Below are positions 9,788 to 62,043 of a stretch of DNA of 64,000 bases, in pieces. A program made the position numbers and the translations under genes. Source of the DNA: Clostridia bacterium. Its GTDB lineage: Bacteria > Bacillota > Clostridia > Christensenellales > SZUA-584. The stretch's first letter is position 1. The number at the start of each line of letters is the position of its first letter. The stretch spans positions 2,994 through 66,993 of the forward strand of contig JABGQS010000013.1 in NCBI GenBank assembly GCA_018648645.1, read 5' to 3'. Under the pieces are notes generated by a model. The model was given only the letters and a program-made list of their open reading frames with translations. It was not told where the DNA came from and ran no database searches.

Positions 9788-9802
9788 TGGAGGATATAAT
9801 AA

Positions 9803-12831: not shown

Positions 12832-14102
12832 TATCGTCTGTCCTCCAACATCTCAAGATATGCTCCAAAGCGGGTAGCCATTTGACCGTCGCTACAGTTG
12901 GCAGGGTCTCCACCGTCGCCGTCAAGTATCAGCGTCGGATAACCCGCTTCCTCAAAGTCGCGCTTAAACAGCGCGGATGCGCCGAGCGTTCCCTTGCAGC
13001 CCCAGTGTGCGAACACGACAATGCCATCAGCCTTTGTCTGCTCTGCGACCTGCTGCGCGCGCTGTGCACGCAATTTATAGTCGCCGTTGTAGCACGAATA
13101 CACCATGCGATGAGCCATCGCTTCATACGGGTTCGTGGGATCGATGTGCATCATGCTGTCATAAACAAGGTCGCAGGCAACAATCCTGGCTCTGTCGGTA
13201 AAGCTCAGATACTTGTTTGCCGAGGGTTGCAAGAAAGGAATCATGTGCAGCCAAACAAGACGAATGGCGTCATTGCCCTTCGCTTTCTTAATGTCAGAGA
13301 GCATGCGACGAGCGTACGTTTCCGCTTTTTTTGTGCCCATCATAATGTGACCTGTGAATACCGCGTAAAGCTCGCTTGCGATATCGCTTTTCATGGCGTG
13401 GTCTGCTTGATATTTTAAGTGTTCCAAGTAATATTCGCTGGTGCGGTGACTTCTCTGCATGGCTTCTTGCAGCATATTGTCGGTAATTTTTTTGCCGGAA
13501 ACATCGGAAATAAACGTGACCATTTCCCTTAGCTGCCCGGCAACGTGCTGCACGGCGTCTTCGCTGCGCTCGTATGGAACCTCGACAAAGAAGCTCGGGA
13601 TCTTGAAGCGATTGATTAGATACGGAAAGCTGGTCATGTTGGCATCGCAAGCAAGATTCGTGTAGATAAGCATTTTTGGATTGGGCACGACGCCGCTGCC
13701 CATTGCCCCATGAAATATCCTATGGAAGGAGCACAGCGTTTTTGACGCGCCGTCCTCTTCCGCAGCGTCCAGGAACACCTGCTCTGCGTGAACACCACCC
13801 AGAAACCCCGAAAGCGCTTCAACAGAAAAAGGCGTAATCCCGGCGACGTTCAAAGGCTCGCTCGGAATGAAAATACTTACCATCGCGGATTTTTCCGGCG
13901 AGGATAGCGCATCGACCATCGTGGCAGTAATTTGCCTCGAGGCATAGCGATGACTAGGCGAGACTTTGCTGCTTGGAAGGACAGAGCCGGCCTGCTGAAT
14001 GCGACACGCGTTAATCAGTATTTTGCGCGCTTTGACCGGATCTTCCAATACAGCTTTCTGTATAAGTTGTCCAAACTTTTCTACTTGCTCTTCTCTATCC
14101 AT
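12831..14102 (-). CDS. 2-hydroxyacyl-CoA-dehydratase-family (HGD-D) large subunit; the double-cubane-cluster-protein family is an alternative
   Basis: AGGAG RBS. 423 aa with the family-typical C-terminus ...GIVVFAHWGCKGTLGASALFK. Translationally coupled to the fusion gene. Confidence 0.75.
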   Translation of the reverse strand: MDREEQVEKFGQLIQKAVLEDPVKARKILINACRIQQAGSVLPSSKVSPSHRYASRQITATMVDALSSPEKSAMVSIFIPSEPLNVAGITPFSVEALSGFLGGVHAEQVFLDAAEEDGASKTLCSFHRIFHGAMGSGVVPNPKMLIYTNLACDANMTSFPYLINRFKIPSFFVEVPYERSEDAVQHVAGQLREMVTFISDVSGKKITDNMLQEAMQRSHRTSEYYLEHLKYQADHAMKSDIASELYAVFTGHIMMGTKKAETYARRMLSDIKKAKGNDAIRLVWLHMIPFLQPSANKYLSFTDRARIVACDLVYDSMMHIDPTNPYEAMAHRMVYSCYNGDYKLRAQRAQQVAEQTKADGIVVFAHWGCKGTLGASALFKRDFEEAGYPTLILDGDGGDPANCSDGQMATRFGAYLEMLEDRR

Positions 14103-15935: not shown

Positions 15936-16967
15936 ATGAAAGCATTTGTGTATCACGGCGAGACGAGCTTTAGCATGGACGAGGTAGCTGCGCCAACAGC
16001 GGGCAAAGGCGAGGCGGTGGCAAAGATACTGGCTGCGTCAATATGCGGCACGGATCTGCGAACATTCCGTTTTGGCAGCGCCAAGCTAGCTGCGCCGATT
16101 ACGGTTGGACATGAAGCGTGCTACGAGATTACGCAGGTCGGCAACGGCGTTGATCTGGAAGTGGGCGGACGGTATATCATAGCTCCGGCGATTGGCTGCG
16201 GTGGGTGCAAAAGCTGCAAAAAGGGACGCACCAACATGTGCGATACTTTGCAGACGATTGGGTTTCAATACCCGGGAACGTTTGCGGAGTACATCAAAAT
16301 ACCTGCAAAAGCGATTAACGGCGGGTATCTCATCAAAGTGCCGGACAGCGTTTCGGACAAAGCGGCGAGTGTGGTCGAGCCTGTCGCGTGTGCGATAAAT
16401 GCACAGAGCTTTTTGAACATCGAGCAGGGTGACAACGTCGTGATATACGGCGCGGGATACCTTGGGTGCATTCACGCCGAGCTCGCGATGATGCAGGGCG
16501 CAAGCGAAGTCATTATAGCAGAGATTTCCGAAAATCGCCGCAGCAAGGCGAAGCAGCTCGTGCCAAGTGCGCTGATTGTGGACTCGGGCAAACAGGGGTA
16601 TATGGACGAGATTAGAGACATCGTTGGCGACATGGGCGTTGACGTTGTAATCACGGCGTGCCCGGCCGGAATCACTCATAAGCAAGGTCTTGAGCTGTTG
16701 TACAAAAACGGGCGGATTAGCCTTTTCGGCGGGCTGCCGGGCGAGGACAACTATCATCTCGACAGCAACTTGATACATTACAAAGAGCTTGGCGTTTTTG
16801 GCGCACATGCCGGCACAGTAGCACAGAACAAGCAGGCGCTGGAGGCTGTGGAAAGCGGCAAGCTTGATGTGGCGAAGTATATAAGCGCGTTTGCGCTTGG
16901 TGACATAGAGAAAGCGTTTGCAGCGCTGATTGATGAGACTGCCGAGAAAGCGGTTGTTATTCCGTAA
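15936..16967 (+). CDS. Second Zn-dependent medium-chain dehydrogenase
   Basis: ATG lies 1 nt after the upstream stop; the listed ORF 15813 is an out-of-context extension. Motifs SICGTDLR, GHEACYEI, CGGCKSCKKGRTNMC, GAGYLG. Confidence 0.85.
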   Translation: MKAFVYHGETSFSMDEVAAPTAGKGEAVAKILAASICGTDLRTFRFGSAKLAAPITVGHEACYEITQVGNGVDLEVGGRYIIAPAIGCGGCKSCKKGRTNMCDTLQTIGFQYPGTFAEYIKIPAKAINGGYLIKVPDSVSDKAASVVEPVACAINAQSFLNIEQGDNVVIYGAGYLGCIHAELAMMQGASEVIIAEISENRRSKAKQLVPSALIVDSGKQGYMDEIRDIVGDMGVDVVITACPAGITHKQGLELLYKNGRISLFGGLPGEDNYHLDSNLIHYKELGVFGAHAGTVAQNKQALEAVESGKLDVAKYISAFALGDIEKAFAALIDETAEKAVVIP

Positions 16968-45059: not shown

Positions 45060-45542
45060 ATGACGGGCTGCACAAAGAATAAAAATCAATTGCTATATGA
45101 CGAGCTGGCTCACTTCATTGCCGATTTGCCGGAGCGCAAGGGCGCGCTTATTTCGGTGCTGCACAAAGCGCAGAGCATATTCGGATATCTGCCGCGCGAG
45201 GTTCAGGAGTTTGTGGCAGGTCAGTTAAAAATACCTGTATCAAAAGTGTACGGCGTTGTCGAGTTTTACGCATTTTTTACTATGAAACCAAAAGGGCAGA
45301 TCCCGATTTCAATCTGCCTAGGGACGGCGTGTTTTATAAAAGGCGCAAAGGACGTGCTCAGCGAACTAAAGCAGATTTTGTCAATCGATGTCGGCGAGGT
45401 AACGCCGGACGGCAGGTTTTCAATCGACACGCTGCGGTGCGTAGGCACGTGCGCAATGGCGCCGGTAATTATGATTGACGAAAAAGTTTACGGCAATGTC
45501 GAGCGCAAAGACGTAAAAAAGATTATTCGCGAGCACCAATAG
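45060..45542 (+). CDS. NuoE/HydC/FdsG-like [2Fe-2S] thioredoxin-fold subunit
   Basis: AAGGGGAG RBS. Cys ligands CLGTAC ... CVGTCAMAP. Confidence 0.9.
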   Translation: MTGCTKNKNQLLYDELAHFIADLPERKGALISVLHKAQSIFGYLPREVQEFVAGQLKIPVSKVYGVVEFYAFFTMKPKGQIPISICLGTACFIKGAKDVLSELKQILSIDVGEVTPDGRFSIDTLRCVGTCAMAPVIMIDEKVYGNVERKDVKKIIREHQ

Positions 45543-45551
45543 GGAGCAGCT

Positions 45552-47048
45552 ATGGACGTTGTCACATCACTAAACAACATGACGTTTTACAAAAAGCAGC
45601 GGCGCATCGCGCTACGTAACTGCGGCGTTATCGACCCCGAAAATATCGACGAGTACATCGCATTCGACGGGTACAAAGCGCTCGCCACAGTGTTTGAGCA
45701 GCTGTCGCCCGACCAAGTGATTGATAACGTAAAACAATCTGGACTGCGAGGACGCGGAGGCGGCGGTTTCCCGACAGGGCGCAAGTGGGAGCTGGCAAGC
45801 GCGAAACAGTCGGACATCAAATACGTAATCTGCAACGCGGACGAAGGCGACCCCGGCGCTTTCATGGACAGGTCGATTCTCGAAGGCGACCCGCACAGCG
45901 TAATCGAAGCCATGACTATCTGCGGCTATGCCATCGGCGCAAACGAGGGCAAAATATACATCCGGGCGGAGTACCCGCTGGCGATTCACAGGCTGGAGAG
46001 GGCGATAGCCGACGCGAGGGAATACGGATTCATCGGCAAGAACTGCAACGGCAACGGCTTCGATTTCGACATCGAAATCAAGTACGGCGCAGGCTCGTTC
46101 GTGTGCGGCGAGGAAACGGCGCTCATCCGCTCGATGGAAGGCGAGAGGGGCGAGCCGACAATGCGACCTCCGTATCCTGCGGACGAAGGGTATTGGGGCA
46201 AGCCGACCAACGTTAACAACGTCGAAACGTTCGCAAACATCCCAAGCATAATACTAAACGGCGCGAAGTGGTTTGCCGACATTGGAACCGACAAATCAAA
46301 AGGCACAAAAGTGTTTTCACTCGCGGGCAAAGTCAATAACGTCGGGCTGATAGAAGTGCCGATGGGCATCACCCTGCGTGAAGTGATATACGACATCGGC
46401 GGCGGCATTGCGGGCGGCAAAGCATTCAAAGCCGTACAAACGGGCGGACCGTCAGGCGGGTGCCTCACGGCGGACGACCTTAACACCCCGATAGATTATG
46501 AAAACCTGCTGGCGGTGGGTTCAATGATGGGCAGCGGTGGCATGATCGTGATGGACGAAAGTGACTGCATGGTAGACTTTGCGAAATTCTACATGGAGTT
46601 TCTCGTGGAAGAATCGTGCGGAAAATGCACACCCTGCCGCGAGGGCACAAAGCGGCTGCACGAGCTGCTTGCAAAAATTACGCAGGGTGAAGCGGCTTTA
46701 AAAGACTTGCAAACCATACGGCAGTTGTGCGAAGTCGTCAAAGACTCGTCTCTTTGCGGTCTCGGGCAAACAGCACCCAATCCTGTTCTTTCCACGATGA
46801 CAAAGTTCAGCAAGGAGTATCTTGCGCACATCACAGACCATAAATGTCCCGCAGGCAAGTGCACGGCTTTGCTGCGTTTCAGCGTTGATGAGGGCAACTG
46901 CACTGGCTGCACGCTCTGTAAAAAAGCGTGCCCGACGCAAGCAATAACCGGCGAGGTCAAGCAAGTTCATTACATAGAGCAGAGCAAATGCATACGTTGC
47001 GATGCGTGCTATAAAGTCTGCAAATTTGACGCAATCATAAAGAAGTAG
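45552..47048 (+). CDS. NuoF/HydB/FdsB-like NAD(P)H- and FMN-binding subunit with a C-terminal 2x[4Fe-4S] ferredoxin domain
   Basis: AGGGAG RBS. Motifs [29 protein letters not shown]-terminal [12 protein letters not shown] and [12 protein letters not shown]. Confidence 0.9.
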
Positions 47049-47058
47049 GAGAGCCGAT

Positions 47059-49752
47059 ATGGGCACAGTGAACATCACGATAAACGACAAGCAAATAAAA
47101 GCGCAGCTCGGCAGCAGCGTGCTTAGCGCCGCCGCAAAGAACGGCATCCATATTCCCGCACTGTGCGACAACGAGCTGTTGGACGCCAAAAACGGTGCAG
47201 CCTGCCGAATCTGCGTGGTGGAGATTGACGGACGCAAAACTCTGTCGCCCTCCTGCGCAACGGCGGTAAGCGAGGGTATGGGTATCCGTACCGACACCGA
47301 CAGAGTAATCAAAACCCGCAAAATGCTTCTCGAGCTTATCATAGCGAACCATCCGCTCGATTGCGATACATGCGAGAAGAACAATCGCTGCGCATTGCAA
47401 ACTTACTGCTCCGACTACGGAGTAGAGGATTCAAGATTCGCAGGCGGCGAGACCAAGAATTACGCTCCCGACACCAGCAACAAGTTCTACGACTACGACG
47501 CGAACAAGTGCATACTGTGCGGCAACTGCACACGGGTCTGTGGCGAGCTTCAAGTAAACGGCGCTATCGGGCGCGCAGGCAGAGGCTTCGAAACACGCGT
47601 AGCTGCTGCGTTCGACGAGTCTCTGGACAAATCGGTTTGCGTTTCCTGCGGCAACTGCGTATCGGCATGCCCTGTGGACGCATTGCTGCCAAAGCCAAAA
47701 GGTAAACGGCGCTCGTCCGAAACCGGAAAAGTGAAAACAACGTGTCCATATTGCGGCGTCGGCTGCCAAATGAACCTAATTATCGATGACAATCACGTCA
47801 TAGATGTAGAGCCGGTAAATGGCCTCGCCAACCGCGGTCTGCTTTGCGTGAAAGGCAAGTTCGGCATGGAGTTTATCGACAAGCCGGACAGGTTGACGGT
47901 GCCGCTTATCAAGCGGAACGGCGAGTTTGTCGAGTCAACATGGGAGCAGGCACTAAGCCTTATCGCAGACAAAATCACCGATGTAAGAGACAAACACGGC
48001 GCGGATGCTATCGCAGGGCTTTCCTCCGCCAGAGTCACCAACGAGGAAAACTATCTGTTCCAAAAATTTATAAGAATGCTCGGCACAAACAATGTAGACC
48101 ATTGCGCGCGGTTGTGCCACGCGTCTACAGTCACGGGGCTTGGCACAACGCTCGGCAGCGGCGCCATGACAAACAGCAACGCCGAAATTCTCGGTGCCGA
48201 TGTAATACTCGTCAGCGGATCAAACACCACCAAAACGCATCCGGTTTTGGGCTCATTCATGAAGCAGGCGCAAACGCGCGGCGCAAAACTCATCGTCATC
48301 GAGCCGCGCAGAATCGAGCTTGCACAAACGGCGGATGTGTTTTTGCAGATTAACCCGGGGACAAACGTCGCCGTGTACAACGCGATGATGCACGTCATTA
48401 TCGAAGAAGGACTCCAAGACAAAAACTATATCGCGCAGAAAACCGAGAACTATGACGCGCTTAAAGCGCTGGTTGCGCAGTGCCCGCCCGAAATCGCTGC
48501 AAAAATCTGCGACGTACACGCGGACGATATACGAGCTGCTGCGCGGCTGTACGCAAGCGCAGACAAAGCGGGCATATTCTACAGCATGGGCGTCACCCAG
48601 CACACGAGCGGCACGGACGGCGTCAAGAGCGTCAGCAACTTAGCGCTGCTGTGCGGTAACGTTGGTATCGAGTCAGGCGGCGTCAACCCACTGCGCGGAC
48701 AAAACAACGTGCAGGGCGCTTGCGACATCGGCGCGCTTCCAAACGTGTTCACAGGCTATCAAAAAGTTACCGACGAGCAGGCAAGGGCTAAATTTAGCAA
48801 GGCGTGGGGAGCCAAGCTGTCCGACAAAAACGGACTTACGCTAACCGAAATTATCCGAAAGAGCGGCGAAGGCGACATCAAATTCCTGTACATCATGGGC
48901 GAAAATCCGATGGTTTCCGACCCCGATTTAAACCACGTAGAGCAAGCTCTAAATGACAGCGAATTCATTGTTGTGCAGGACATCTTTATGACGGAAACAA
49001 CGGCGTTTGCCGATGTGATTCTTCCCGCCACTTCGTTTGCAGAAAAGGACGGAACATTCACTAACACAGAGCGCAGGGTACAGCGCGTGCGCAAAGCGAT
49101 AGAACCGATAGGACAAAGTAAAGCTGATTGGCAGATTATCATGGCGTTGATGAGCAAAATGGGTCTTGCGCAAACCTACAATCACCCAAATGAAATCATG
49201 GACGAAATTTGCCAGCTTACACCGCTTTACGGCGGCATCAGCTTCGAGCGAATCGAGGACGAAGGTCTGCAGTGGCCGTGTCCCGATGCGTCGCACCCCG
49301 GCACGAAATATCTGCACAAAGACAAAATCGCACGCGGCAAAGGGCTTTTCGCACCCGCGCCGTACGTGCCCAGCGACGAACTTCCGGACAGCGAGTACCC
49401 GTTCTATTTCTCCACAGGTCGTATACTGTATCACTATCACACCGCTACCATGACTAAACGGGTGGAGGGAATCAGAAAGATGTTTCCCAAATCGTTTGTG
49501 CAGATTCATCCGAAGGACGCAGACAAACTCAGCATAAGAAACGGTGACAAACTAATCGTTGCGTCTCGGCGCGGAGAGGTGACGACCACCGCTAAAGTCA
49601 CCGACATGGTCAAGCAAGGGCTGCTGTTTATGCCGTTCCACTTTGCTGACGGACCTGCAAACATGCTAACGAACCCCGCACTCGACCCGGTTGCAAAGAT
49701 ACCCGAGCTGAAAGTTTGCGCTGCAAAAATCAAAAAAGTATCGCAGACTTGA
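47059..49752 (+). CDS. fdhA: Formate dehydrogenase alpha subunit (Mo/W-bisPGD, Cys-type, with NuoG-like N-terminal Fe-S domains)
   Basis: AGGAGAG RBS. Motifs CRICVVE, HPLDCDTCEKNNRC, CILCGNCTRVC, CVSCGNCVSACP, TTCPYCGVGCQ. Active-site region VDHCARLCHAST uses a TGC codon (48115-48117) where Sec-type enzymes have TGA. Confidence 0.9.
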   Translation: MGTVNITINDKQIKAQLGSSVLSAAAKNGIHIPALCDNELLDAKNGAACRICVVEIDGRKTLSPSCATAVSEGMGIRTDTDRVIKTRKMLLELIIANHPLDCDTCEKNNRCALQTYCSDYGVEDSRFAGGETKNYAPDTSNKFYDYDANKCILCGNCTRVCGELQVNGAIGRAGRGFETRVAAAFDESLDKSVCVSCGNCVSACPVDALLPKPKGKRRSSETGKVKTTCPYCGVGCQMNLIIDDNHVIDVEPVNGLANRGLLCVKGKFGMEFIDKPDRLTVPLIKRNGEFVESTWEQALSLIADKITDVRDKHGADAIAGLSSARVTNEENYLFQKFIRMLGTNNVDHCARLCHASTVTGLGTTLGSGAMTNSNAEILGADVILVSGSNTTKTHPVLGSFMKQAQTRGAKLIVIEPRRIELAQTADVFLQINPGTNVAVYNAMMHVIIEEGLQDKNYIAQKTENYDALKALVAQCPPEIAAKICDVHADDIRAAARLYASADKAGIFYSMGVTQHTSGTDGVKSVSNLALLCGNVGIESGGVNPLRGQNNVQGACDIGALPNVFTGYQKVTDEQARAKFSKAWGAKLSDKNGLTLTEIIRKSGEGDIKFLYIMGENPMVSDPDLNHVEQALNDSEFIVVQDIFMTETTAFADVILPATSFAEKDGTFTNTERRVQRVRKAIEPIGQSKADWQIIMALMSKMGLAQTYNHPNEIMDEICQLTPLYGGISFERIEDEGLQWPCPDASHPGTKYLHKDKIARGKGLFAPAPYVPSDELPDSEYPFYFSTGRILYHYHTATMTKRVEGIRKMFPKSFVQIHPKDADKLSIRNGDKLIVASRRGEVTTTAKVTDMVKQGLLFMPFHFADGPANMLTNPALDPVAKIPELKVCAAKIKKVSQT

Positions 49753-49763
49753 AGGAGAGTCCC

Positions 49764-50534
49764 ATGGACGTGACCAAACAGTTTGATATAATTAATTATT
49801 CGGGCGGCGAACTTGAGTCGGTCGCCGACAGCGTGGTGGTCGAATACTCTTTAACGGTTTTTTTGAACGGAGATGAACTCGTCACAATGCTGTGCACACC
49901 AAAATCGCTGCAAAGCCTTGTGGTTGGCTTTCTTTACTCAGAAGGAATAATCGAATCGTTTTCGCAGATTTCGGACATTTTTATATGCCACAAGGACGGC
50001 ATTGCGCTCGTCACGCTGACAAAAAAGCGCATGAAAGCAATTGGGGATATCGACTTTAGAAAAACGATCACCAGCGGCTGCGCAAGCGGCAAGTCTGTCG
50101 AGAATGTATCAGCGGCGGACTATAAGAAAATCGAGACAACCATCAAGATAGACCAGCTCAAAGTTTTAGAGCTCATCAAACAGTTCAATAAAAAATCGGA
50201 AATATTCCTCAAAACGGGGGGTGTGCACAGTTGCGCATTGTGCTCGCAGGACGAGATTATTCTATTCGAAGAAGATATCGGGCGCCATAACGCGCTGGAA
50301 AAAATCCTCGGACAAGCATTGCAGGACAACATTGACCTAAGCGACAAGATGATACTCACATCCGGGCGGATATCCAGCGAGATAATCAAAAAAGCGGCAA
50401 AGCGGCGCATTCCTGTCGTGGTGTCAAGATCAGCGCCGACGGATGCAGCTATCGACCTGGCTAAATCGCTCGGCATCACGTTGATAGGGTTCGCCAGAGG
50501 AGCGCGGATGAACATATACACGCAATATCCATAA
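49764..50534 (+). CDS. fdhD: FdhD/FdsC-type formate dehydrogenase accessory sulfurtransferase
   Basis: GAAGGAGAG RBS, then ATG 49764. Motifs EDIGRHNALEK, TSGRISSE, VVVSRSAPT. Confidence 0.85.
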   Translation: MDVTKQFDIINYSGGELESVADSVVVEYSLTVFLNGDELVTMLCTPKSLQSLVVGFLYSEGIIESFSQISDIFICHKDGIALVTLTKKRMKAIGDIDFRKTITSGCASGKSVENVSAADYKKIETTIKIDQLKVLELIKQFNKKSEIFLKTGGVHSCALCSQDEIILFEEDIGRHNALEKILGQALQDNIDLSDKMILTSGRISSEIIKKAAKRRIPVVVSRSAPTDAAIDLAKSLGITLIGFARGARMNIYTQYP

Positions 50535-50682: not shown

Positions 50683-51012
50683 ATGAAAATTAGCATTGAG
50701 AAAAACGTTGTAAATCTTGTGCCTGAAAGCACACACGAAAAGGCAGAGCTTGAAGCGCTGTGGAGACTAATGATCGACTGCAACGACCAAAGCAGAAAAA
50801 TGGTGCCGATTGGCGAATTTGTCCCGGCAAAGAATAACTCCGGCGCATCATTTCATATTGAAGGTCTGCCGCAGACAAAGCAGGAGTATACCGCAATTGC
50901 TGTAGATGAAGACAGCAGATGCTACTGTGCAACCTGCAACAACTTTGTGGATGTTAAAAAGGGATCGCCCATACCGCTGTGCTGCGGCAAATTGATGGAA
51001 GTCATAGACTAA
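50683..51012 (+). CDS. Hypothetical protein with a C-terminal desulforedoxin-like Cys4 motif
   Basis: AAAGGGA RBS. The C-terminus CATCNNFVDVKKGSPIPLCCGKLMEV matches the Dx/Dfx-N pattern CxxC-x14/15-CCGxxM. The N-terminal ~75 aa match nothing I recognise. Confidence 0.6.
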   Translation: MKISIEKNVVNLVPESTHEKAELEALWRLMIDCNDQSRKMVPIGEFVPAKNNSGASFHIEGLPQTKQEYTAIAVDEDSRCYCATCNNFVDVKKGSPIPLCCGKLMEVID

Positions 51013-51096: not shown

Positions 51097-51155
51097 GCAA
51101 CCAAATACATGTTGCTGTTCATATAGGATAGCAGCATGTTTTTTTTGTTGGTTGC
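51097..51155. terminator. Bidirectional terminator hairpin between convergent genes
   Basis: Outer stem GCAACCAA / TTGGTTGC, inner stem ACATGTTGCTG / GCAGCATGT, with a T8 run on the + strand. Confidence 0.65.
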
Positions 51156-51182: not shown

Positions 51183-51515
51183 CTACTCAGTACCAACCAG
51201 CACATCCCCGTCCTGTGTTTTGACGGGATAAGCGATTGCGTCACCCACCTTAAATTTGATGAAAGCCAGTTTGCCTCCGTGCACAGCTTTGCCCGTTCTC
51301 ACATCGAACGCAGACCCGTGACGCGGACATACGATGTTGCCGCCATTTAGATTACCGTCCGAGAGTGAACCACCCATGTGAGGACACTTGTTATCAAGGG
51401 CATAATATGCACCGTCCAGCTTTGCCAGCATCAGCGTTTTGCCGTTTACAACGACCTTCATTTTGCCGCCGTCACTCAACTCTGACGCACTGTCAATTTT
51501 CACATATTCCATCAT
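51183..51515 (-). CDS. Small soluble Rieske [2Fe-2S] ferredoxin-like protein
   Basis: AGGAAGAGGTG RBS, then ATG 51515 (the listed ORF is longer). Rieske boxes CPHMGGSL and CPRHGSAF. Confidence 0.85.
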   Translation of the reverse strand: MMEYVKIDSASELSDGGKMKVVVNGKTLMLAKLDGAYYALDNKCPHMGGSLSDGNLNGGNIVCPRHGSAFDVRTGKAVHGGKLAFIKFKVGDAIAYPVKTQDGDVLVGTE

Positions 51516-51652
51516 AATGCACCTCTTCCTTATTAATGGTTCTATCATAACACTAATACCAATATGACACAAAACGCGAGTGCCAATATATATCTGTAAT
51601 GCCAATATCAAAGCAAGTTTATGATTTTTTTGTGGTCCTTATGACTTTTATG

Positions 51653-51681
51653 TTGACAATTTGGCGTGTGTACATTATCAT
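51653..51681 (+). promoter_or_regulatory. Sigma-70-type promoter for the hydrogenase operon
   Basis: TTGACA, 17 nt, TATCAT. About 210 nt upstream of ATG 51892. Confidence 0.5.
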
Positions 51682-51740
51682 GATAAATGAGCTCAAACAC
51701 AACAGCATTTACACTTTGTCTGTTTTGAGTTTAGGCATAA

Positions 51741-51758
51741 ATGTGAAATATTTCACAT
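51741..51758. promoter_or_regulatory. Perfect 18-bp palindrome matching the Rex operator (TTGTGAA-N4-TTCACAA), which also fits a CRP/FNR-type TGTGA-N6-TCACA box
   Basis: ATGTGAAATATTTCACAT is an exact reverse-complement palindrome. It lies between the predicted promoter and the first hydrogenase gene. Confidence 0.6.
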
Positions 51759-51891
51759 GAACCGTACGACAAAAAGACCTTTTTTTACAGCACGTGATGA
51801 AACCACCGACACCAAGGAATTTTACTTTAGAGATTTAAAAAAACATAGTGATTTAATGAACTGACACATACACAATATAGCGAGGTAGAAT

Positions 51892-52961: not shown

Positions 52962-53798
52962 ATGGAAAGAACAGTACTATTAAAATCGCCGTATGTGGCA
53001 AGTGAAGGAAGAATCATCGAGAGCCGATTCCTAACTAAGGAAGAAAAATACTTCAAAATTGCGCTCAAAGGCGGCAAGCTGCTGGACTTTGTTCCGGGGC
53101 AGTTCGTTATGGTGGCAATCCCCGGTGCGGGCGAGGCACCCATATCGATAAGCTCGTCGCCGTCCCAAGTAGGGTATTTTGAAATCGTCGTGCGCAAAGT
53201 CGGCACATTTACTTCGGCCATCCACATGCTCGAAGAAGGCGACATGATTGGCATTCGTGGACCGTTTGGCTCGGGTTTTCCTGTCCGTATGCTCGAAGGA
53301 AACGACATGCTGTTTATCGCAGGCGGTCTTGGAATCATTCCGCTGCGCTCGCTCATCAACTACGTCATCGACAACAGACGCGATTACGGTAAAGTAAGCA
53401 TACTGCTCGGCTGCAAGTCGCCCGAGAACCTTCTGTTTTCCGACGAGCTTGACGAGTGGCAGCAACGTCTCGACGTCAACCTTGCATGCACGGTAGACAG
53501 AGCCGCGCCCGATTGGGACGGAAACGTCGGCCTCATCACATCGCTTATTCCGGGCGTCACGCTCGACAGCCATATGACATACGCAATTGTTGTCGGTCCG
53601 CCGGTAATGTACAAATACGTGCTCACTGAGCTCGTAAAAAAAGAAGTTCCGGAATCACAGATTTACGTATCGTTCGAGCGGCATATGAAATGCGGCGTCG
53701 GGCATTGCGGACACTGCCAGATGGGCAGCCTATATTGCTGCAAAGAAGGTCCGGTGTTCAACTACGCAAAGATCAAAGACAATATCGAAGCTTTATAG
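52962..53798 (+). CDS. hyhG: [NiFe] hydrogenase group-3b-type gamma subunit (FNR/PyrK/AsrB-like FAD-NAD(P) protein with [2Fe-2S])
   Basis: GAGGTG RBS. Motifs RFLTKEEKYF..GQFVMV, MLFIAGGLGIIPLRS, C-terminal CGVGHCGHCQMG...C. Confidence 0.8.
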   Translation: MERTVLLKSPYVASEGRIIESRFLTKEEKYFKIALKGGKLLDFVPGQFVMVAIPGAGEAPISISSSPSQVGYFEIVVRKVGTFTSAIHMLEEGDMIGIRGPFGSGFPVRMLEGNDMLFIAGGLGIIPLRSLINYVIDNRRDYGKVSILLGCKSPENLLFSDELDEWQQRLDVNLACTVDRAAPDWDGNVGLITSLIPGVTLDSHMTYAIVVGPPVMYKYVLTELVKKEVPESQIYVSFERHMKCGVGHCGHCQMGSLYCCKEGPVFNYAKIKDNIEAL

Positions 53799-53828: not shown

Positions 53829-54578
53829 ATGAAAAGGAAAACGGTAGCATTTTTTGACTTCACTTGCTGCGAAGGGTGCCAATTGCAGGTTGCCAACTTC
53901 GGAGAAGAGCTTCTGGATATTTTGGCGGCTATAGATGTTGTTATGTTCAGAGAAGTTATGTCCGAGAAAAGCGACGAATACGATGTCGCGATTATTGAAG
54001 GCAGCATCACAACCCCGCACGATGTCGAGCGTATCAAGGAAATCAGAGAGACAGCAACAACGGTGATTGCTCTTGGGTCGTGCGCCAGTATAGGCGGCAT
54101 CAACGGCATGAAGAACAGCTTTAAGCTCGAAGACGTGCAATCATACGTTTATGGCGAGGATGGCAAAAACTATTTCGAAACGATACCGACAATGGCGGTG
54201 CACCAAGTGGTCGATGTAGACTACTTCGTCCACGGATGCCCAATTTATCCGCCGGAGTTTGTAAAAATACTAAAGTACGCTTTGCAAGGGTTGCCCTACA
54301 CTGTCAAGGACGAAGCTGTATGCGTGGAATGCAAGCTCAACGAGAACGAATGCATGTATGAAAAGGGCTTAACGTGTCTCGGTCCAATCACCAAAGCGGG
54401 CTGCAACTCGTGGTGTATCAACTACGGAAACATATGCTACGGCTGCCGCGGTATGGTCAAAGAAACAACCAAAAACGCCAGCATAGATGTTATCAAGAAG
54501 TACGACATACCAATGGATTGGATTATGGGCAAGTTTGATATGTATAACAAAGCGACTGAGTCGGAGGAGAAAAAATAA
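53829..54578 (+). CDS. hyhS: [NiFe] hydrogenase small (delta) subunit
   Basis: AGGAG RBS. Motifs FDFTCCEGCQ, GSCASIGG, HGCP and C-terminal Cys clusters. Confidence 0.85.
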   Translation: MKRKTVAFFDFTCCEGCQLQVANFGEELLDILAAIDVVMFREVMSEKSDEYDVAIIEGSITTPHDVERIKEIRETATTVIALGSCASIGGINGMKNSFKLEDVQSYVYGEDGKNYFETIPTMAVHQVVDVDYFVHGCPIYPPEFVKILKYALQGLPYTVKDEAVCVECKLNENECMYEKGLTCLGPITKAGCNSWCINYGNICYGCRGMVKETTKNASIDVIKKYDIPMDWIMGKFDMYNKATESEEKK

Positions 54579-54580
54579 TC

Positions 54581-55912
54581 ATGGCAAGATCAGTTAATGT
54601 AGATGTTAAATATCTGACGCGCGTTGAAGGACACGGAAACATCGTCGTCAATGTAAAAGACGGAATAGTCGAAGAATGTAGGCTCGATATCGTTGAAGCA
54701 CCACGCTTTTTCGAAGCGATGCTGCGAGGTCGCTCCATTTTCGAAGCCCAGCATATCACCTCAAGAATATGCGGTATCTGTGCATGCGGTCACACAATCT
54801 CGTCCATTGCAGCTGCAGAGGATGCTATTGGCTTCACGCCGTCCGAGCAAACCACCAAGCTGCGCAAAATACTTCTCTATCAAGAGATGCTAGACAGCCA
54901 CATACTGCATATCTATCTGCTTGTAGCGCCCGATTTGCTGGGTGTGCCAAGCTTTGTACCTTTGATAGATACTCACGGCAACGTGGTTAAACGCGCGCTG
55001 CGCATGAAAAAAGCGTGCAACGATGTCTGCGCAGTTCTTGCAGGCAGACACATACACCCGATTTCTTCAATCGTCGGCGGGTTCACCAAAATTCCCGGCG
55101 AAAAAGAGCTCGACGCTATGCTCGATATTCTTTACGATATGCGTCCGGATATGGATTCGACAGTAGAGCTTATCAAAACTTTGGCACCGGCCATTCCCGT
55201 GTTCGAACGCGAAACAGAATACGTCGCTTTGGTCACCGATGATGACGAGTACCCAACGCTCGAAGGCGATTTGGGTTCTTCCGACGGTCTGCGTCTCGAC
55301 AAAAGCGAGTACTTAAAAATAACGAACGAGTTTGTAATGCCGCACTCATCGGCAAAGCACGCAAAAGCCAGCAGAAAATCGTACATGACGGGCGCACTAG
55401 CGCGCTTCAATATCAATTCCGAAAAACTGAACCCGAAAGCCAAAGCTGTTGCAGACGCGCTTGGCATGAAGCCGCCAATCATCAACCCATATATGAACAC
55501 CGCGGCGCAATTGGTAGAGTGCATGCACTACATGGAAGAGTCTATCGCGATTCTCGAAGACCTTAAGGCAAACGGCACCGACCAAAGCGAAGCGATTACT
55601 GTCGGGCTTAACGAGCGTAATGATATAAAAGTTAATAAGGGTCTTGGCGTAGGCGCAGTTGAAGTACCGCGCGGTCTGTTGTTCCACAGCTACGAAGTGG
55701 ACGAAACCGGCAAAATCGAGAACGCAAACTGCATCATCCCGACCAGCCAAAACGTCAATAACATCGAACACGATATGAGCAAATTGATACACGAGATTCT
55801 CGACAAACCGGACGAGGAAATCACGTTGATGTTCGAAATGCTCGTACGTGCGTACGACCCGTGCATTTCGTGCAGCGCACATTTCTTGGATGTAGAGTTC
55901 ATCAATCGCTGA
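54581..55912 (+). CDS. hyhL: [NiFe] hydrogenase large (alpha) subunit
   Basis: L1 motif RICGICACGH and L2 motif DPCISCSAH, followed by a 9-aa tail (FLDVEFINR) as expected for endopeptidase processing. Confidence 0.9.
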   Translation: MARSVNVDVKYLTRVEGHGNIVVNVKDGIVEECRLDIVEAPRFFEAMLRGRSIFEAQHITSRICGICACGHTISSIAAAEDAIGFTPSEQTTKLRKILLYQEMLDSHILHIYLLVAPDLLGVPSFVPLIDTHGNVVKRALRMKKACNDVCAVLAGRHIHPISSIVGGFTKIPGEKELDAMLDILYDMRPDMDSTVELIKTLAPAIPVFERETEYVALVTDDDEYPTLEGDLGSSDGLRLDKSEYLKITNEFVMPHSSAKHAKASRKSYMTGALARFNINSEKLNPKAKAVADALGMKPPIINPYMNTAAQLVECMHYMEESIAILEDLKANGTDQSEAITVGLNERNDIKVNKGLGVGAVEVPRGLLFHSYEVDETGKIENANCIIPTSQNVNNIEHDMSKLIHEILDKPDEEITLMFEMLVRAYDPCISCSAHFLDVEFINR

Positions 55913-55914
55913 CC

Positions 55915-56463
55915 ATGCAAAGGGGAAACCGACACGACAATATTGAAAAGTCTTTGATTGCGCCACTGCAAAAACTCGACCGGTACGGACTGCTGTCGGG
56001 GCGTTGCAATGGCGCTTTTGTAATGGCGGGAAACACGTTTCGCAGCGACGACGGCGTTGGCCCATACATCGCGCAACAGCTCGCACCCATACTTGACAAC
56101 CATCCCGCGCTTCGCCTTGTCGATGCCCACACCAACCCGGAAAACCACATCGACGAGTTGATTGCTTTTTCTCCCGCGCTCGTGGTCTTTATAGACGCCG
56201 CGAACTTTGGAGGGCTGCCGGGTGAGTTCATACTCATAGAAGACGAAGCGGCATTTGCGGCAAGCAGTGCAAGCACGCACACGATACCGCTTGGGGTCAT
56301 CGCGTCATTGATCAAATCGGAATGCGGCTGTGCTGTGATGTACATCGGCATACAAGCGGAGAATTTCTCTCTTGGAGAAACGCTTTCAGAAAGTGTGAAA
56401 AAGGCAGCAGATTTGTTTGTAAAAGCAATCCGCACCAGATTGTCGGGTACGCAACATGCATGA
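55915..56463 (+). CDS. Hydrogenase maturation endopeptidase (HycI/HoxW/FrhD family)
   Basis: Core AFVMAGNTFRSDDGVGPYIA...VFIDAA...STHTIPL. ATG 55915 lies 2 nt after the hyhL stop and gives a ~35-aa N-terminal extension. The alternative ATG 56023 would remove the first beta-strand. Confidence 0.75.
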   Translation: MQRGNRHDNIEKSLIAPLQKLDRYGLLSGRCNGAFVMAGNTFRSDDGVGPYIAQQLAPILDNHPALRLVDAHTNPENHIDELIAFSPALVVFIDAANFGGLPGEFILIEDEAAFAASSASTHTIPLGVIASLIKSECGCAVMYIGIQAENFSLGETLSESVKKAADLFVKAIRTRLSGTQHA

Positions 56464-56797
56464 GTACGCAGTAACGGAAAACATACTAAAGATTGTTATA
56501 GAGCAAGCAGCCAAAGCAGACGCCAAAAAGGTGCTCGCGATACGTCTCACAATCGGCGCGCTTTCCGGCTTCGAGCAAGACTGCATCCAAATGTACTATG
56601 AGGAGCTTTCAAAGGATACGATTGCGGCGGGTGCAAAGCTGATTGTAACAAAGGTCGAGGCACAGCTTCATTGCCGCAACTGCGACACAGATTTTGCCCT
56701 GACACACACCGACTACAACTGCCCAACGTGCGGAGTGGCGGGCGTGTATAACGATGACGGTCGCGATTTTATGATTGAGAGCATCGAGATCGAATGA
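56456..56797 (+). CDS. hypA: Hydrogenase nickel-insertion protein HypA
   Basis: N-terminal MHE; Zn site CRNCDTDF...CPTCG. Confidence 0.9.
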   Translation: MHEYAVTENILKIVIEQAAKADAKKVLAIRLTIGALSGFEQDCIQMYYEELSKDTIAAGAKLIVTKVEAQLHCRNCDTDFALTHTDYNCPTCGVAGVYNDDGRDFMIESIEIE

Positions 56798-56809
56798 GAG
56801 GATATATTC

Positions 56810-57478
56810 ATGGAGATTAAAGTTCAAAAGAACATAATGAACCGCAACAACGAGATTGCGGCAGAAAATCGCCAACGATTTATTGACGACGGCATATTTA
56901 CAGTCAACGTTCTGGCGTCACCGGGTGCGGGCAAAACGAGCGTGCTGCTAAAGATTATCGAGACAATCGACGGCAAAATCGACATGGCGATTCTCGAGGG
57001 CGACATTGCGTCGCAGATAGACACCGACAAAATCCGCAAGCGCGGCATCCCCGTCATGCAAATCAACACGGGCGGCGGCTGCCACCTCGACGCCAACATG
57101 ATACGCGTATCGCTGAGCGAGCTAAAGCCCGCAAAAAACGCCATTTTCCTCATCGAGAACGTCGGCAACCTCGTGTGCCCGTCTTCTCATGACCTCGGCG
57201 AAAACATGAAGCTACTCATCGCCAGCGTCCCCGAAGGTCACGACAAACCGTACAAATACACATCCATGTTTGCAGCAGCAGACGCGATAATACTCAACAA
57301 GACCGACCTGCTGCCGTATATTGATTTTGATAAAGAGGTTTTCTACAAAGGCGTGCATGCACTAAAACCGGACGTGCCGGTGTTCGAGATGTCATGCAAA
57401 ACCGGCGACGGCGTAGCGGACTTTGTTAATTGGCTAAAGGATAAAAGAAAACTATGGCAGACTCAGCATACAAAATAG
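56810..57478 (+). CDS. hypB: Hydrogenase nickel-incorporation GTPase HypB (no His-rich N-terminus)
   Basis: P-loop ASPGAGKTS, metal site GGGCHLDA, and NKTDL. Confidence 0.9.
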   Translation: MEIKVQKNIMNRNNEIAAENRQRFIDDGIFTVNVLASPGAGKTSVLLKIIETIDGKIDMAILEGDIASQIDTDKIRKRGIPVMQINTGGGCHLDANMIRVSLSELKPAKNAIFLIENVGNLVCPSSHDLGENMKLLIASVPEGHDKPYKYTSMFAAADAIILNKTDLLPYIDFDKEVFYKGVHALKPDVPVFEMSCKTGDGVADFVNWLKDKRKLWQTQHTK

Positions 57479-59727
57479 ATATTACAGGGATTGTTCAGGG
57501 GGTGGGTTTCCGGCCTTTCATATATCGGCTCGCAAAGAAATTCGAGCTTAACGGCTATGTCACTAACACGTTGATGGGCGTGCACGTTTATGTCGAGGGC
57601 GCTCAGCATGCACTCGACAACTTTGCGAAGTCAATCGAGCCACAGAGTCCAAACATTTCGTCCATCGAGGATATGCAAATCCTTAAAGTAGCCCCCATTG
57701 GCGCAAAATCCTTCACAATAGAAAAAAGCGAAAAACTCTCAGGAAACGAGATTTTTATCTCGCCAGATTTGTCAACTTGCGCCGACTGTAAAAGCGATAT
57801 TCTGGACGAAAGCAACCGCCGATATCGCTATCCTTTCACCACCTGCACATACTGCGGACCCAGATACTCGATTATCCGCGACGTTCCATATGACAGGAGC
57901 AGCACCGTCATGGATGAATTCACAATGTGCCCGGCTTGCCAAAGCGAGTATGACGACCCAAATGACAGGCGCTACCACAGCCAGCCAAACGCCTGCGCAG
58001 TTTGCGGACCAAAGCTCTCTTTGTATAACACCAAAGACAAAGCATGTGTGCAAGTCGGCGATGGCGACTATATTTCGCTTATCGCAGATGCGCTGAAACG
58101 CGGACAAATCGTCGCGCTAAAGGGTCTTGGGGGCTACCAGCTTTGCTGCGACGCAAGCAACTCGGACGCGCTCGCAGCTCTGCGAGAGCGAAAGCATCGC
58201 GAAGCAAAACCGTTCGCCGTCATGTGCAAAGACGTTTTGGCAGCGCAAAACCATTGCCACATCTCGCCCGAAGAAACGGAATTGCTACTCAGCCCGCACA
58301 ACCCAATCGTGCTTATGGAAAAACGGAAAGCAAGCACAATCGCAGACAACGTGTCAAGCGACAACGATTATCTCGGCGTCATGCTTCCCTACACACCCAT
58401 TCACATTCTGCTTATGGAGATAGTGGACACATTGGTGATGACCAGCGCCAATATATCGGACATGCCAATCATCAGCGACGATGAGGATGCCAAAGCAAAT
58501 CTTGCGGATATCGCCGACTATATATTGATGCACAACAGAAAAATTCACCGCAGAGTAGACGACTCGGTGTACAAAGTAACCAACGAATTACCGCAGGCAA
58601 TCAGAAGAGCGCGGGGATACGCGCCCGGCATTGTGAAAGCAGACAAATTGAAAACGCCTATTCTGGCGGTTGGCGCAGAGCTTAAAAACACCTTTGCAGT
58701 CAGCCGCGGCAGCAACATCTTCGTCAGCCCGCACATCGGCGATTTGAAATACGCGCAAACGTACGAGTTGTTCAAGCAAAGCATTCACGAGTTCAAACAG
58801 CTTTTTGGCGTATCGCCGAAAGTGGTCGCGTGCGATATGCACCCGGGTTACCTGTCAACAAAATGGGCGAGCGAATCCGGGCACCGGGTGATAAAAGTAC
58901 AGCACCACCATGCGCATTTGGCAGCCACCCTTCTCGAGTACGGCATAATGGACGAGCCTGCAATCGGCTTCTGCATGGACGGCACGGGCTACGGTACCGA
59001 CGGCGCAATTTGGGGCTGCGAAGCCGGCATCGTCTCTTTCAAGCAGTTCAAGCGCATCTCTCACTTAGGTTATTTCGCTCTTCCCGGAGGCGACATATGC
59101 GCCAAAGACGTATACAGATGCGGCGTTTCGCTGATTAATCAAGCGGTAGGTCGTGTGGATGCAAACCAATACGAATTTCTTCAAGATATCGCCTCGCAAA
59201 ACATACAAGTTATTCAAGAGATGATAGAGCAAAACATCAACACCGTGCCGACCTCCAGCATGGGCAGACTCTTCGACGGCGTCTCCAGCATCATTGGGCT
59301 GGGTAGCTCTTCGCTTTACGAGGCCGGCGCCGCGATACGGCTGGAAAGCGTCGCAGACAAGAGTATTACCGATGCATATACAGTCTCGCTCCGTGAATAT
59401 GACGGGCTTCATTTGTGGATGTGGGAGAGCATGATTGGCGAAATACTGCTGGATTTAGAAGAAAAGACGCCAATCGGTACGATAAGCGCAAAATTCCACA
59501 ACAGTGTGATAGAATACATTATAAAAATGACACAGATTATAAGCCGGCAGAGCGGAATTACAAAAGTGGCTTTGTCAGGCGGCGTTTTCAACAACTCGCT
59601 CATCAGCGACAGGGCAGAAGCGCTGCTCAGGGGAAACGGGTATGAAGTATACCTTCAAAGAACTTTCCCCGCAGGCGACGGCGGGCTGTGTATCGGACAA
59701 CTAATAGCAGCAAACGAGGTGATTTAA
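57454..59727 (+). CDS. hypF: Carbamoyltransferase HypF
   Basis: Acylphosphatase domain GIVQGVGFRPFIY. Zn fingers CADCKSD..CTYCGPRYS and CPACQSEY..CAVCGP. YrdC and Kae1-like domains. Overlaps hypB by 25 nt. Confidence 0.9.
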   Translation: MADSAYKIDITGIVQGVGFRPFIYRLAKKFELNGYVTNTLMGVHVYVEGAQHALDNFAKSIEPQSPNISSIEDMQILKVAPIGAKSFTIEKSEKLSGNEIFISPDLSTCADCKSDILDESNRRYRYPFTTCTYCGPRYSIIRDVPYDRSSTVMDEFTMCPACQSEYDDPNDRRYHSQPNACAVCGPKLSLYNTKDKACVQVGDGDYISLIADALKRGQIVALKGLGGYQLCCDASNSDALAALRERKHREAKPFAVMCKDVLAAQNHCHISPEETELLLSPHNPIVLMEKRKASTIADNVSSDNDYLGVMLPYTPIHILLMEIVDTLVMTSANISDMPIISDDEDAKANLADIADYILMHNRKIHRRVDDSVYKVTNELPQAIRRARGYAPGIVKADKLKTPILAVGAELKNTFAVSRGSNIFVSPHIGDLKYAQTYELFKQSIHEFKQLFGVSPKVVACDMHPGYLSTKWASESGHRVIKVQHHHAHLAATLLEYGIMDEPAIGFCMDGTGYGTDGAIWGCEAGIVSFKQFKRISHLGYFALPGGDICAKDVYRCGVSLINQAVGRVDANQYEFLQDIASQNIQVIQEMIEQNINTVPTSSMGRLFDGVSSIIGLGSSSLYEAGAAIRLESVADKSITDAYTVSLREYDGLHLWMWESMIGEILLDLEEKTPIGTISAKFHNSVIEYIIKMTQIISRQSGITKVALSGGVFNNSLISDRAEALLRGNGYEVYLQRTFPAGDGGLCIGQLIAANEVI

Positions 59728-59955
59728 ATGTGTTTGGCAGCACCGGCAAGAATTACAAAAATAATTGACAAGGACAACGCGTTTGTAGATATCAGAGGCG
59801 TTACGCAAAAAACCAACATTTCTCTGGTCGATATCAATGTCGGCGACTGGGTGTTGATTCACGCAGGCATCGCTATCAACACCATCGACGAAGAGCTTGC
59901 GGCCGATGCGCTCAAGATTATAGACGAATTGGATGTGGACGCCAATGAACTTTGA
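59728..59955 (+). CDS. hypC: Hydrogenase assembly chaperone HypC
   Basis: N-terminal MCLAAPARI. ATG immediately follows the hypF stop. Confidence 0.9.
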   Translation: MCLAAPARITKIIDKDNAFVDIRGVTQKTNISLVDINVGDWVLIHAGIAINTIDEELAADALKIIDELDVDANEL

Positions 59956-61042
59956 CCAATTCAGAACGCCCGGCGAGGGCATAGAAAAACTCAAACACCT
60001 GATTGCCAAAACGGCAGACAGAGACATAACAATTATGGAAGTGTGCGGAACACACACAATGGCGCTTTTCCGTCACGGCATCAGAGACATGATTCCGACC
60101 GGCATCAAATTGCTTTCGGGTCCCGGATGCCCGGTTTGCGTAACGGAGAATTCTGTAATAGACAAAATGATATGGCTGGCGGGTCAGAGTGATGTCATAG
60201 TCGCAACCTTTGGCGACATGCTTCGAGTGCCGGGGAGCTACAGTTCGCTGAATCTGCAAAAAGCAAACGGTGCAAATGTGCAGGTAGTATACTCGCCGCT
60301 TTTGGCGTTAGAGCTTGCCAAAAAGCATCCGGACAAAAAGGTCGTATTCATCGCAGTCGGTTTCGAGACAACAATACCGGCTATCGCGGTCGCACTTAAA
60401 AGCGCCAAACAGCGCGGCATCAACAATTTCTTCGTACTGTGTGCGCACAAAACGGTTCCAATAGCGCTCGAAGCAATTGCGGGCATGGACAACAATGTAG
60501 ACGGTCTGCTTCTGCCCGGGCACGTCTCCTCAATTATCGGCGCAAACGCGTACCGCTTTCTGGCAGAGCAATATTCACTTCCGGGTGTCATCGCCGGGTT
60601 CGAGCCGCTCGATTTATTGAAAGCGATATACATGATTGTAGACATGATTACGAGCTCCAAAATTGCGATTGTAAACGCGTACGAGCGCGTTGTGTCTGAC
60701 ACCGGCAACATAAAAGCGCAGCAGGTCATTGCGCAGGTTTTCGAGCCTTGCGACGCATCATGGCGGGGGATGGGGACAATCGCCGGTTCAGGGCTTAAGC
60801 TTAACGAGGATTACGTAGCGTTTGATATAGAAAGCATCATGCGCATCGACATCGCGCCGCCGATAGAGCCCGCTGGCTGCCTGTGCGGGCAGATACTGTG
60901 CGGAACCAAAACGCCGCCCGACTGCGCCCACTTCGCAAGCAAATGCGTGCCCGAAAACCCTGTCGGACCGTGCATGGTCTCGACCGAAGGAACGTGCGCA
61001 GCATATTACAAATATAGAAACATCGGAGGCAGCGACTCATGA
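59945..61042 (+). CDS. hypD: Hydrogenase maturation protein HypD
   Basis: Motifs EVCGTHTMA, GPGCPVCV, and a C-terminal Cys cluster. The start is ATG 59945 or 59933; both overlap hypC. Confidence 0.9.
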   Translation: MNFDQFRTPGEGIEKLKHLIAKTADRDITIMEVCGTHTMALFRHGIRDMIPTGIKLLSGPGCPVCVTENSVIDKMIWLAGQSDVIVATFGDMLRVPGSYSSLNLQKANGANVQVVYSPLLALELAKKHPDKKVVFIAVGFETTIPAIAVALKSAKQRGINNFFVLCAHKTVPIALEAIAGMDNNVDGLLLPGHVSSIIGANAYRFLAEQYSLPGVIAGFEPLDLLKAIYMIVDMITSSKIAIVNAYERVVSDTGNIKAQQVIAQVFEPCDASWRGMGTIAGSGLKLNEDYVAFDIESIMRIDIAPPIEPAGCLCGQILCGTKTPPDCAHFASKCVPENPVGPCMVSTEGTCAAYYKYRNIGGSDS

Positions 61043-62043
61043 AAAACGAGCTGATTCTGCTCGCTCACGGAAGCGGCGGCAAACAAATGCGAAAATTGAT
61101 TGAAGGATTTGCGGGTAAATATTTCTCTAACCCTATTCTAGACAAAATGAACGATTTTGCGCAGATAGACGGTGGCAGCAAGACAATCGTTTCCACCGAT
61201 TCGTTTGTAATAAAACCATACAAATTCCCGGGCGGAGACATAGGCAAATTAGCGGTCTGCGGCACGGTCAACGACGTTGCCTGCAGCGGTGCAGATGTGA
61301 AATACTTAACGCTTGCTCTCATCATCGAGGAGGGTTTGCCGATTGCCGACCTTGAGGACATATGCAAGTCCATCAAAAAGGCAAGCGAGGAAGCCGGCGT
61401 GCTGGTTATCGCGGGCGATACAAAGGTGGTAGAGCACGGCGCGGCAGACGGCATATACATCAACACGACGGGTATAGGGATAAAGAGCATTGACGCGGAC
61501 ATCGGCGGCGAGTTTGTGCAGCCCGGCGACAAAATCATAATCAACGGCAACATAGGCGATCACGCCGCAGCAATTCTTGCATGTCGAGAAGGGCTTTCGT
61601 TCACAACGCCGAGCGTAAGCGACTGCGCGCCCCTAAACGGAATGGTGAAGGAGCTACTTGCACAGTGCAGCAATGTGCGATGCATGAGAGACCCGACAAG
61701 AGGCGGCGTAGCAACGGTAGCAGGTGAGATTGCCCGCCAGTCTAAAGTCGGGATAAATATCTTCGAGCAGGCTTTACCGATAGAGCAAAGCGTGCTCGGT
61801 GCGTGCGAGCTTTTCGGTATGGACCCGCTCTACATGGCAAACGAAGGCAAGCTGCTGATTTTTATCGCCGCAGAGGAAGCAGACAAAGCGATAGAAGTTC
61901 TGCGAGGGAATAAGTACGGCAAAAACGCTGCCATTATCGGCGAGGTCACGGACAAGAAGCAGGGTGTAGTGCTGCAAACCGCTATCGGCAGCAGCAGAAT
62001 TTTGGACGAGTTGACCGGAGAGATACTGCCAAGAATATGCTAG
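61039..62043 (+). CDS. hypE: Hydrogenase maturation protein HypE
   Basis: ATGA overlap with hypD. PurM-like fold. The C-terminal ...LPRIC carries the Cys that bears thiocyanate. Confidence 0.9.
   Translation: MKNELILLAHGSGGKQMRKLIEGFAGKYFSNPILDKMNDFAQIDGGSKTIVSTDSFVIKPYKFPGGDIGKLAVCGTVNDVACSGADVKYLTLALIIEEGLPIADLEDICKSIKKASEEAGVLVIAGDTKVVEHGAADGIYINTTGIGIKSIDADIGGEFVQPGDKIIINGNIGDHAAAILACREGLSFTTPSVSDCAPLNGMVKELLAQCSNVRCMRDPTRGGVATVAGEIARQSKVGINIFEQALPIEQSVLGACELFGMDPLYMANEGKLLIFIAAEEADKAIEVLRGNKYGKNAAIIGEVTDKKQGVVLQTAIGSSRILDELTGEILPRIC

Follow-up and report, generated by a model that had tools for sequence, protein, structure and literature searches.

The perfect palindrome ATGTGAAATATTTCACAT at positions 51741-51758 of the window, i.e. 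of the whole 64,000-nucleotide (64-kb) stretch analysed here, is most likely a DNA operator of the redox-sensing repressor Rex, as predicted from its sequence and from its position in the leader of an operon encoding a group 3b, NAD(P)-linked [NiFe] hydrogenase. Since a Rex site is the most likely identity of the palindrome, production of the NAD(P)H-linked [NiFe] hydrogenase by the uncultured marine Clostridia bacterium from which the DNA comes is probably restricted to times when reducing power accumulates. The prediction draws on the match of the palindrome to the Rex consensus, on the distribution of the same motif among orthologous hydrogenase loci and on its retention in the closest relatives.

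The hydrogenase operon and its surroundings

The palindrome and the features around it are as follows; the calls and Pfam assignments for the maturation genes were taken from an identical JGI contig, on which a locus coordinate becomes a window coordinate by addition of 41891.

51183..51548, minus strand: gene for a Rieske [2Fe-2S] protein, divergent from the operon and sharing its intergenic region (gene call and Pfam)
51653..51681, plus strand: predicted sigma-70-type promoter P1, TTGACA-17-TATCAT (11/12 positions)
51688..51891, plus strand: predicted long 5' leader of ~200 nt that holds the operator, without a known RNA family or an unusual fold
51741..51758, no strand assigned: predicted Rex operator ATGTGAAATATTTCACAT, core exact, 20.1 bits, unchanged in locus L167, one mismatch in L169
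51892..52926, plus strand: hyhB-like beta subunit (4Fe-4S, Fer4_22), first gene of the operon (JGI name: sulfhydrogenase subunit beta)
52962..53798, plus strand: hyhG-like gamma subunit, FAD, NAD(P) and 2Fe-2S binding (FAD_binding_6, NAD_binding_1, DHODB_Fe-S_bind)
53829..54578, plus strand: [NiFe] hydrogenase small subunit (Oxidored_q6)
54581..55912, plus strand: [NiFe] hydrogenase large subunit, group 3b type (NiFeSe_Hases)
55915..62043, plus strand: maturation genes hycI, hypA, hypB, hypF, hypC, hypD and hypE (gene calls and Pfam)

The subunit set, comprising an FeS beta, an FAD/NAD(P) gamma, a small and a NiFe large subunit, is that of a group 3b enzyme, and the best solved relatives of the large subunit are cytosolic NiFe-hydrogenase and the alpha subunit of sulfhydrogenase 1 (PDB 5yxy, 9nez and 9e15; E=4e-73 to about 1e-72). 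The closeness of the large subunit to sulfhydrogenase I alpha thus identifies a group 3b, NAD(P)-linked hydrogenase, and an assumption to that effect in the initial annotation is borne out by both the domain content and these structural relatives. The genes from hycI to hypE are tightly packed behind the structural genes, with which they probably share a common transcript.

The arrangement with the divergent Rieske gene is the same in L167, the locus closest to that of the window. Beyond the Rieske gene lies an NAD-linked formate dehydrogenase operon (45060-50534; NuoE-like and NuoF-like proteins, an 897-aa FdhA fusion and FdhD), in which the weight-matrix scan described below found no Rex-like site. 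Between these, a 109-aa ORF (50683-51012) has no Pfam family, its synteny being conserved on all contigs of the same species, and is followed by a strong terminator-like hairpin at 51107-51139 (14 pairs and a T-run). In the part of the window concerned with acyl-CoA metabolism (9803-10996 / 11164-12831), there are unusual fusions, i.e. an EtfA-like protein with an N-terminal 4Fe-4S ferredoxin domain, and a 2-hydroxyacyl-CoA dehydratase D-component joined to a BcrAD/BadFG-type activator ATPase.

No rex gene was detected in the 64-kb window by tblastn with a B. subtilis Rex sequence, a query which did detect rex in 27 loci. Pfam scans of about 50 ORFs of the window likewise revealed no Rex or CRP/FNR regulator, the regulators found among them being an OmpR-type response regulator and an RpiR protein.

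Sequence and rarity of the palindrome

As the initial annotation had claimed from the letters at this position, ATGTGAAATATTTCACAT is a perfect inverted repeat of 18 bp (9+9, without spacer), which in context reads ...GGCATAA-ATGTGAAAT/ATTTCACAT-GAACC.... It agrees at 16/18 positions with TTGTGAANNNNTTCACAA, the consensus that Ravcheev et al. 2012 gave for the ROP sites, i.e. the Rex operators of Gram-positive bacteria, and that is relayed in PMC6391272 and PMC5317091. Its core, TGTGAA-N4-TTCACA, matches the Rex consensus at 12/12 positions and is the single such site in the window; both deviations fall on the outermost positions, which are A...T in the palindrome versus T...A in the consensus. 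A candidate Rex site from Caldithrix ends in ...CACAt, as does the site in the window (PMC5317091).

Counting perfect 18-bp palindromes irrespective of sequence, the window contains exactly one. In Markov-1 simulations of it, the mean was 0.37, and 32% of the simulated windows had one or more; an 18-bp palindrome as such is therefore unremarkable, and what is rare is the identity of its sequence. The expected number per window is 0.25 for TGTGAA-N4-TTCACA when one mismatch is allowed, 0.07 for the full 18-mer when three are allowed, and ~0.005 for the exact 12 specified bases, as calculated from a GC content of 47.7%. With a symmetrised weight matrix built from 25 distinct orthologous sites, the query species and L167 being left out, the palindrome scores 20.1 bits, near the bottom of the range of the training sites (19.2-30.1 bits). 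Nothing else in the window exceeds 15.6 bits, in keeping with the earlier observation that no second copy precedes the formate dehydrogenase or acd-etf operons. The runner-up, TTTTATCAATTATATCACAATA at 4218-4239 (15.6 bits), has one good half-site and lies at the 5' end of the gene for the OmpR-type response regulator, from which an FGE-sulfatase-like gene with an EF-hand diverges; this site is probably non-functional.

Promoter and leader

The -10 hexamer of P1 ends 59 nt 5' of the palindrome, and the hyhB ATG (51892) lies 133 nt 3' of it, in agreement with the distances of ~60 and ~135 nt given previously. From the position of P1, we infer a transcription start near 51688, which would place the operator at about +53 to +70. 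A possible second promoter, P2, would lie near 51856. Promoters of the type TTGACA-17-TATCAT, TAACAT or TAAAAT are also seen in the relatives L167, L169 and L168. At ~60 nt 3' of the -10 hexamer, the operator is farther downstream than in the Omnitrophota loci considered below, or than a typical promoter-overlapping operator. An Rfam search of the leader gave no match at E<=1, and its predicted fold has a z-score of -0.19 versus shuffled sequence.

A promoter scan and reading of 51760-51891 identified no promoter-like hexamer pair 3' of the palindrome at activator distance. A further hexamer pair overlapping the palindrome, TTGAGT-16-AATATT, is at best a weak promoter (8/12 positions by eye, below the scan threshold). 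A 39-aa ORF called at 51641-51760, with its end inside the palindrome, is in our view spurious, given its overlap with the promoter and its absence from L167, which has a different call of 54 aa. Within the leader, the block at 51820-51841, TTTTACTTTAGAGATTTAAAAA, is identical in L167, with its TAGAGA core recurring in L168 and L169. It could be a second promoter (TTTACT-17-CATAGT, the L167 -10 hexamer there being TATAAT), or it could be the site of another regulator.

The motif in orthologous loci and at linked rex genes

Scans of a one-genome-per-species set and of JGI metagenomes yielded 160 orthologous loci, of which 140 were left after removal of duplicates; the best match was 70% in the former set and 72% in the latter, with the source species being in neither. 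Most loci are labelled Omnitrophota, the others being Planctomycetia, Elusimicrobia, Atribacteria, Sumerlaeota, Spirochaetes and Nitrospirota. Sites with at most one mismatch to TGTGAA-N4-TTCACA occur within 500 nt upstream of hyhB in 37/140 loci (68.7 kb searched), and the remaining 1.62 Mb of these loci contains four. The flanks of the orthologous sites extend the consensus to TTGTGA-N6-TCACAA.

With the weight matrix, matches of at least 18 bits were found upstream of hyhB in 43 of the 140 non-redundant loci, and elsewhere in the 1.62 Mb there are nine, all within ~110 nt upstream of a hydrogenase-linked rex gene. As sites upstream of hyhB served to train the matrix, there is some circularity in the matrix and in the count of 43, whereas the nine matches upstream of rex are independent of the training. 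These results, together with the retention of the site in the closest relatives, support the earlier proposal that the palindrome is a Rex operator tying hydrogenase expression to the NADH/NAD+ ratio, a proposal that a lack of conservation before orthologous hydrogenase operons, as had been stated with it, would have refuted.

The linked rex genes exceed the cut-offs of the NCBIfam Rex models, including equivalog models, with E values from 1e-71 to 1e-77. A rex gene is present in the fetched DNA of 22/140 loci, either directly before hyhB (L019, L031 and L055) or behind the structural genes at a distance of 5-6 kb downstream; such linkage to group 3b clusters is seen in many genomes of Omnitrophota type. 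The rex genes with a Rex box of their own are those in L008, L009, L017, L024, L057, L063, L076, L105 and L119; in L009, for example, the box at 16082-16103 precedes rex at 16170-16838. As judged from these predicted sites, the motif before linked rex genes is the classical pattern of autoregulation, and its confinement to the hydrogenase operon and a putatively autoregulated rex is thus the signature of a Rex operator.

The ATGTGAA half-site of the window also occurs in L008 and L009, the clusters of which carry rex. The L009 hydrogenase operator, ATGTGAACGTATTCACAA, lies in a short leader just downstream of a TTGACA promoter, and at the L009 rex gene the operator abuts the -35 hexamer. In a clade with 47-48% HyhB identity the site is ~285 nt upstream of hyhB, before a small hypA-like ORF with which the operon in this clade seems to begin. 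In L066 the ORF between the Rex box and hyhB (9713-9982, 89 aa) has a HypA-like start (...MHE...) and is short.

Conservation in close relatives

HyhB is identical on contigs of several metagenomes and in GCA_018693675.1, in all of which the palindrome is present. In L167 (94% HyhB identity) the palindrome is unchanged, though the leader is only 79% identical; comparison of the window and L167 leaders identifies eight fully conserved blocks of at least 12 nt, one of which is 51739-51759, with others including the -10 region, the ribosome-binding site and 51820-51841. L169 (79%) has ATGTGAAAATTTTAACAA at the aligned position, with one mismatch and a score of 21.0 bits, the top match in that locus, and a TTGACA-17-TAACAT promoter lies ~64 nt 5' of it. 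The right half of the L169 site, TTAACAA, is the clostridial Rex half-site and disrupts the CRP core TCACA.

In L175 and L088 (70%) a 21.1-bit site lies between a divergent MarR gene and hyhB, and L168 (82%) has a weak 16-bit site only. The matrix scan of L172, L173, L007, L090 and L177 (67-74% HyhB identity) found no site. Conservation among close relatives is thus real but patchy, as is usual for single members of a regulon, the patchiness reflecting the absence of any site in several of the 67-74% relatives. Gene calling splits the [NiFe] large subunit of L177, a relative with 67% identity, into two ORFs that overlap (12625-13948; 274 and 183 aa), which could reflect a frameshift, an assembly error or a pseudogene.

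Alternative explanations

The initial annotation had also considered that the palindrome might be the site of a CRP/FNR-family regulator. Examples of such a regulator would be an Fnr of the Bacillus type and sensors of the cAMP or CO type. The recognition sequence of this family is TGTGA-N6-TCACA, from which its members mostly act as activators at positions near -41.5 or -61.5; the same core is reported for Firmicute Fnr proteins, and the E. coli CRP consensus is AAATGTGATCTAGATCACATTT. The palindrome matches TGTGA-N6-TCACA exactly, thus sharing an identical 5+6+5 core with CRP and Bacillus-type Fnr boxes, and its flanks, AAATGTGA...TCACAT, are closer to the E. coli CRP consensus than the TTGTGA...TCACAA Rex flanks. 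CRP and Fnr boxes, however, are activator sites 5' of their promoters, whereas the palindrome lies 3' of the only good promoter, with none at activator distance beyond it. Moreover, no cNMP-binding or HTH_Crp gene is present among the scanned ORFs of the window; as tblastn queries, E. coli CRP and FNR had no match in the window and, in 177 loci, three marginal matches only (E about 1e-3), ~7 kb from hyhB. In the orthologous loci the same motif tracks rex genes, and the half-site of the aligned L169 site breaks the TCACA element. With neither such a gene in the window or beside the orthologous operons nor a suitably placed promoter, this proposal is without support, and we consider it unlikely.

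That the palindrome arose by chance and is without function is somewhat less probable still. Some perfect 18-bp palindrome appears in about a third of the simulated windows, AT-rich intergenic DNA favours such repeats, and half of the relatives with 67-82% HyhB identity have no good site. Against this, the exact Rex core has an expectation of only ~0.005 per window, the palindrome lies in the promoter-proximal leader of an operon type that carries the motif in 43/140 lineages, and a relative retains it intact despite 21% divergence of the leader. We regard as the least probable explanation, and a highly improbable one, that the palindrome acts in RNA, as a 7-bp hairpin (AUGUGAA-AUAU-UUCACAU) affecting transcript stability, pausing or translation. 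The site would be inside the transcript if P1 is the promoter, and the hairpin is present in both the minimum-free-energy and the centroid folds; however, the leader as a whole folds no better than shuffled sequence and belongs to no Rfam family, and no U-run follows the hairpin, which is therefore not a terminator. Across lineages the spacer is variable, whereas the arms TTGTGA/TCACAA keep their sequence and show no compensatory changes, and at rex genes the motif is upstream of or over the -35 hexamer, i.e. outside the transcript.

Proposed mechanism and implications

If the palindrome is a Rex operator, as we favour, then under a low ratio of NADH to NAD+ a Rex dimer would occupy it within the transcribed leader and block RNA polymerase, and the genes for the group 3b hydrogenase and its hyp maturation proteins would be off because of this block. 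On a rise in NADH, Rex would bind NADH and leave the DNA, such that the operon is transcribed; the derepressed hydrogenase could then dispose of surplus reducing equivalents as H2. Given that the operator is predicted to be so far downstream of the transcription start if P1 is used, a roadblock to elongation, or occlusion, is the most likely mode of Rex action here.

We suggest tentatively, as a proposal that may or may not hold, that group 3b hydrogenase operons are a core and ancient Rex target across mostly uncultured phyla (Omnitrophota, Planctomycetota-labelled MAGs, Elusimicrobiota, Atribacterota, Sumerlaeota and Spirochaetota, according to their record labels), with rex often attached to the cluster and autoregulated, and that the operator of this marine Clostridia lineage has shifted far into a conserved ~200-nt leader where it acts as a roadblock. 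We found no paper linking Rex to hydrogenases in Omnitrophota, and the breadth of the rex-hyh association may thus be a modest new observation.

If the Rex assignment is true, hydrogenase expression in this uncultured marine anaerobe would follow the NADH/NAD+ ratio, providing a handle on the timing of its H2 metabolism, and Rex control would support the view that group 3b enzymes serve as a redox valve. The confinement of the motif to the regions upstream of hyhB and rex in many candidate-phylum genomes, together with the frequent linkage of rex to the cluster, may be of use when physiology is deduced from the genomes of Omnitrophota and related uncultured organisms. Knowledge of how Rex itself works is unchanged by the predicted site.

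Comparison with known Rex systems

Rex control of hydrogenases has precedents. The Rex protein of Caldicellulosiruptor bescii is a repressor of NiFe (ech) and FeFe hydrogenase genes as well as of its own gene, with support from EMSA (PMC6391272). The hyd-3b cluster of Calderihabitans maritimus KKC1, which responds with induction to CO and hence to an excess of reducing equivalents, has Rex-like TTGTGA-N6-TCACAA motifs upstream of it (PMC7306483). In view of the published Rex control of hydrogenases and the C. maritimus group 3b motif, the predicted site in the window is a further case of a known type of site in a known type of regulon, and in that sense an ordinary regulatory site.

The similarity to C. 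maritimus extends to a group 3b NiFe hydrogenase, a TTGTGA-N6-TCACAA-like motif and the broad bacterial group. The systems differ in that a rex gene has been identified in C. maritimus, whereas none was found within the 64-kb window, and in that the C. maritimus fdh cluster also bears the motif, whereas the NAD-linked formate dehydrogenase operon adjacent to the hydrogenase operon in the window does not.

With the Gram-positive ROP sites, the window site has in common an 18-bp palindrome with a GTGAA/TTCAC core before hydrogenase genes; an autoregulated rex, as predicted in the orthologous systems; and the logic of an NADH-released repressor, here proposed from sequence. It differs from them at the outermost bases, which are T/A in the ROP sites and A/T in the window, and in its position, which is over the promoter in the ROP systems but, in the window, within a long leader at a predicted position of about +53 to +70. 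The targets differ also, being Ech or bifurcating FeFe hydrogenases in the ROP systems and C. bescii, and a cytoplasmic group 3b enzyme in the organism studied here.
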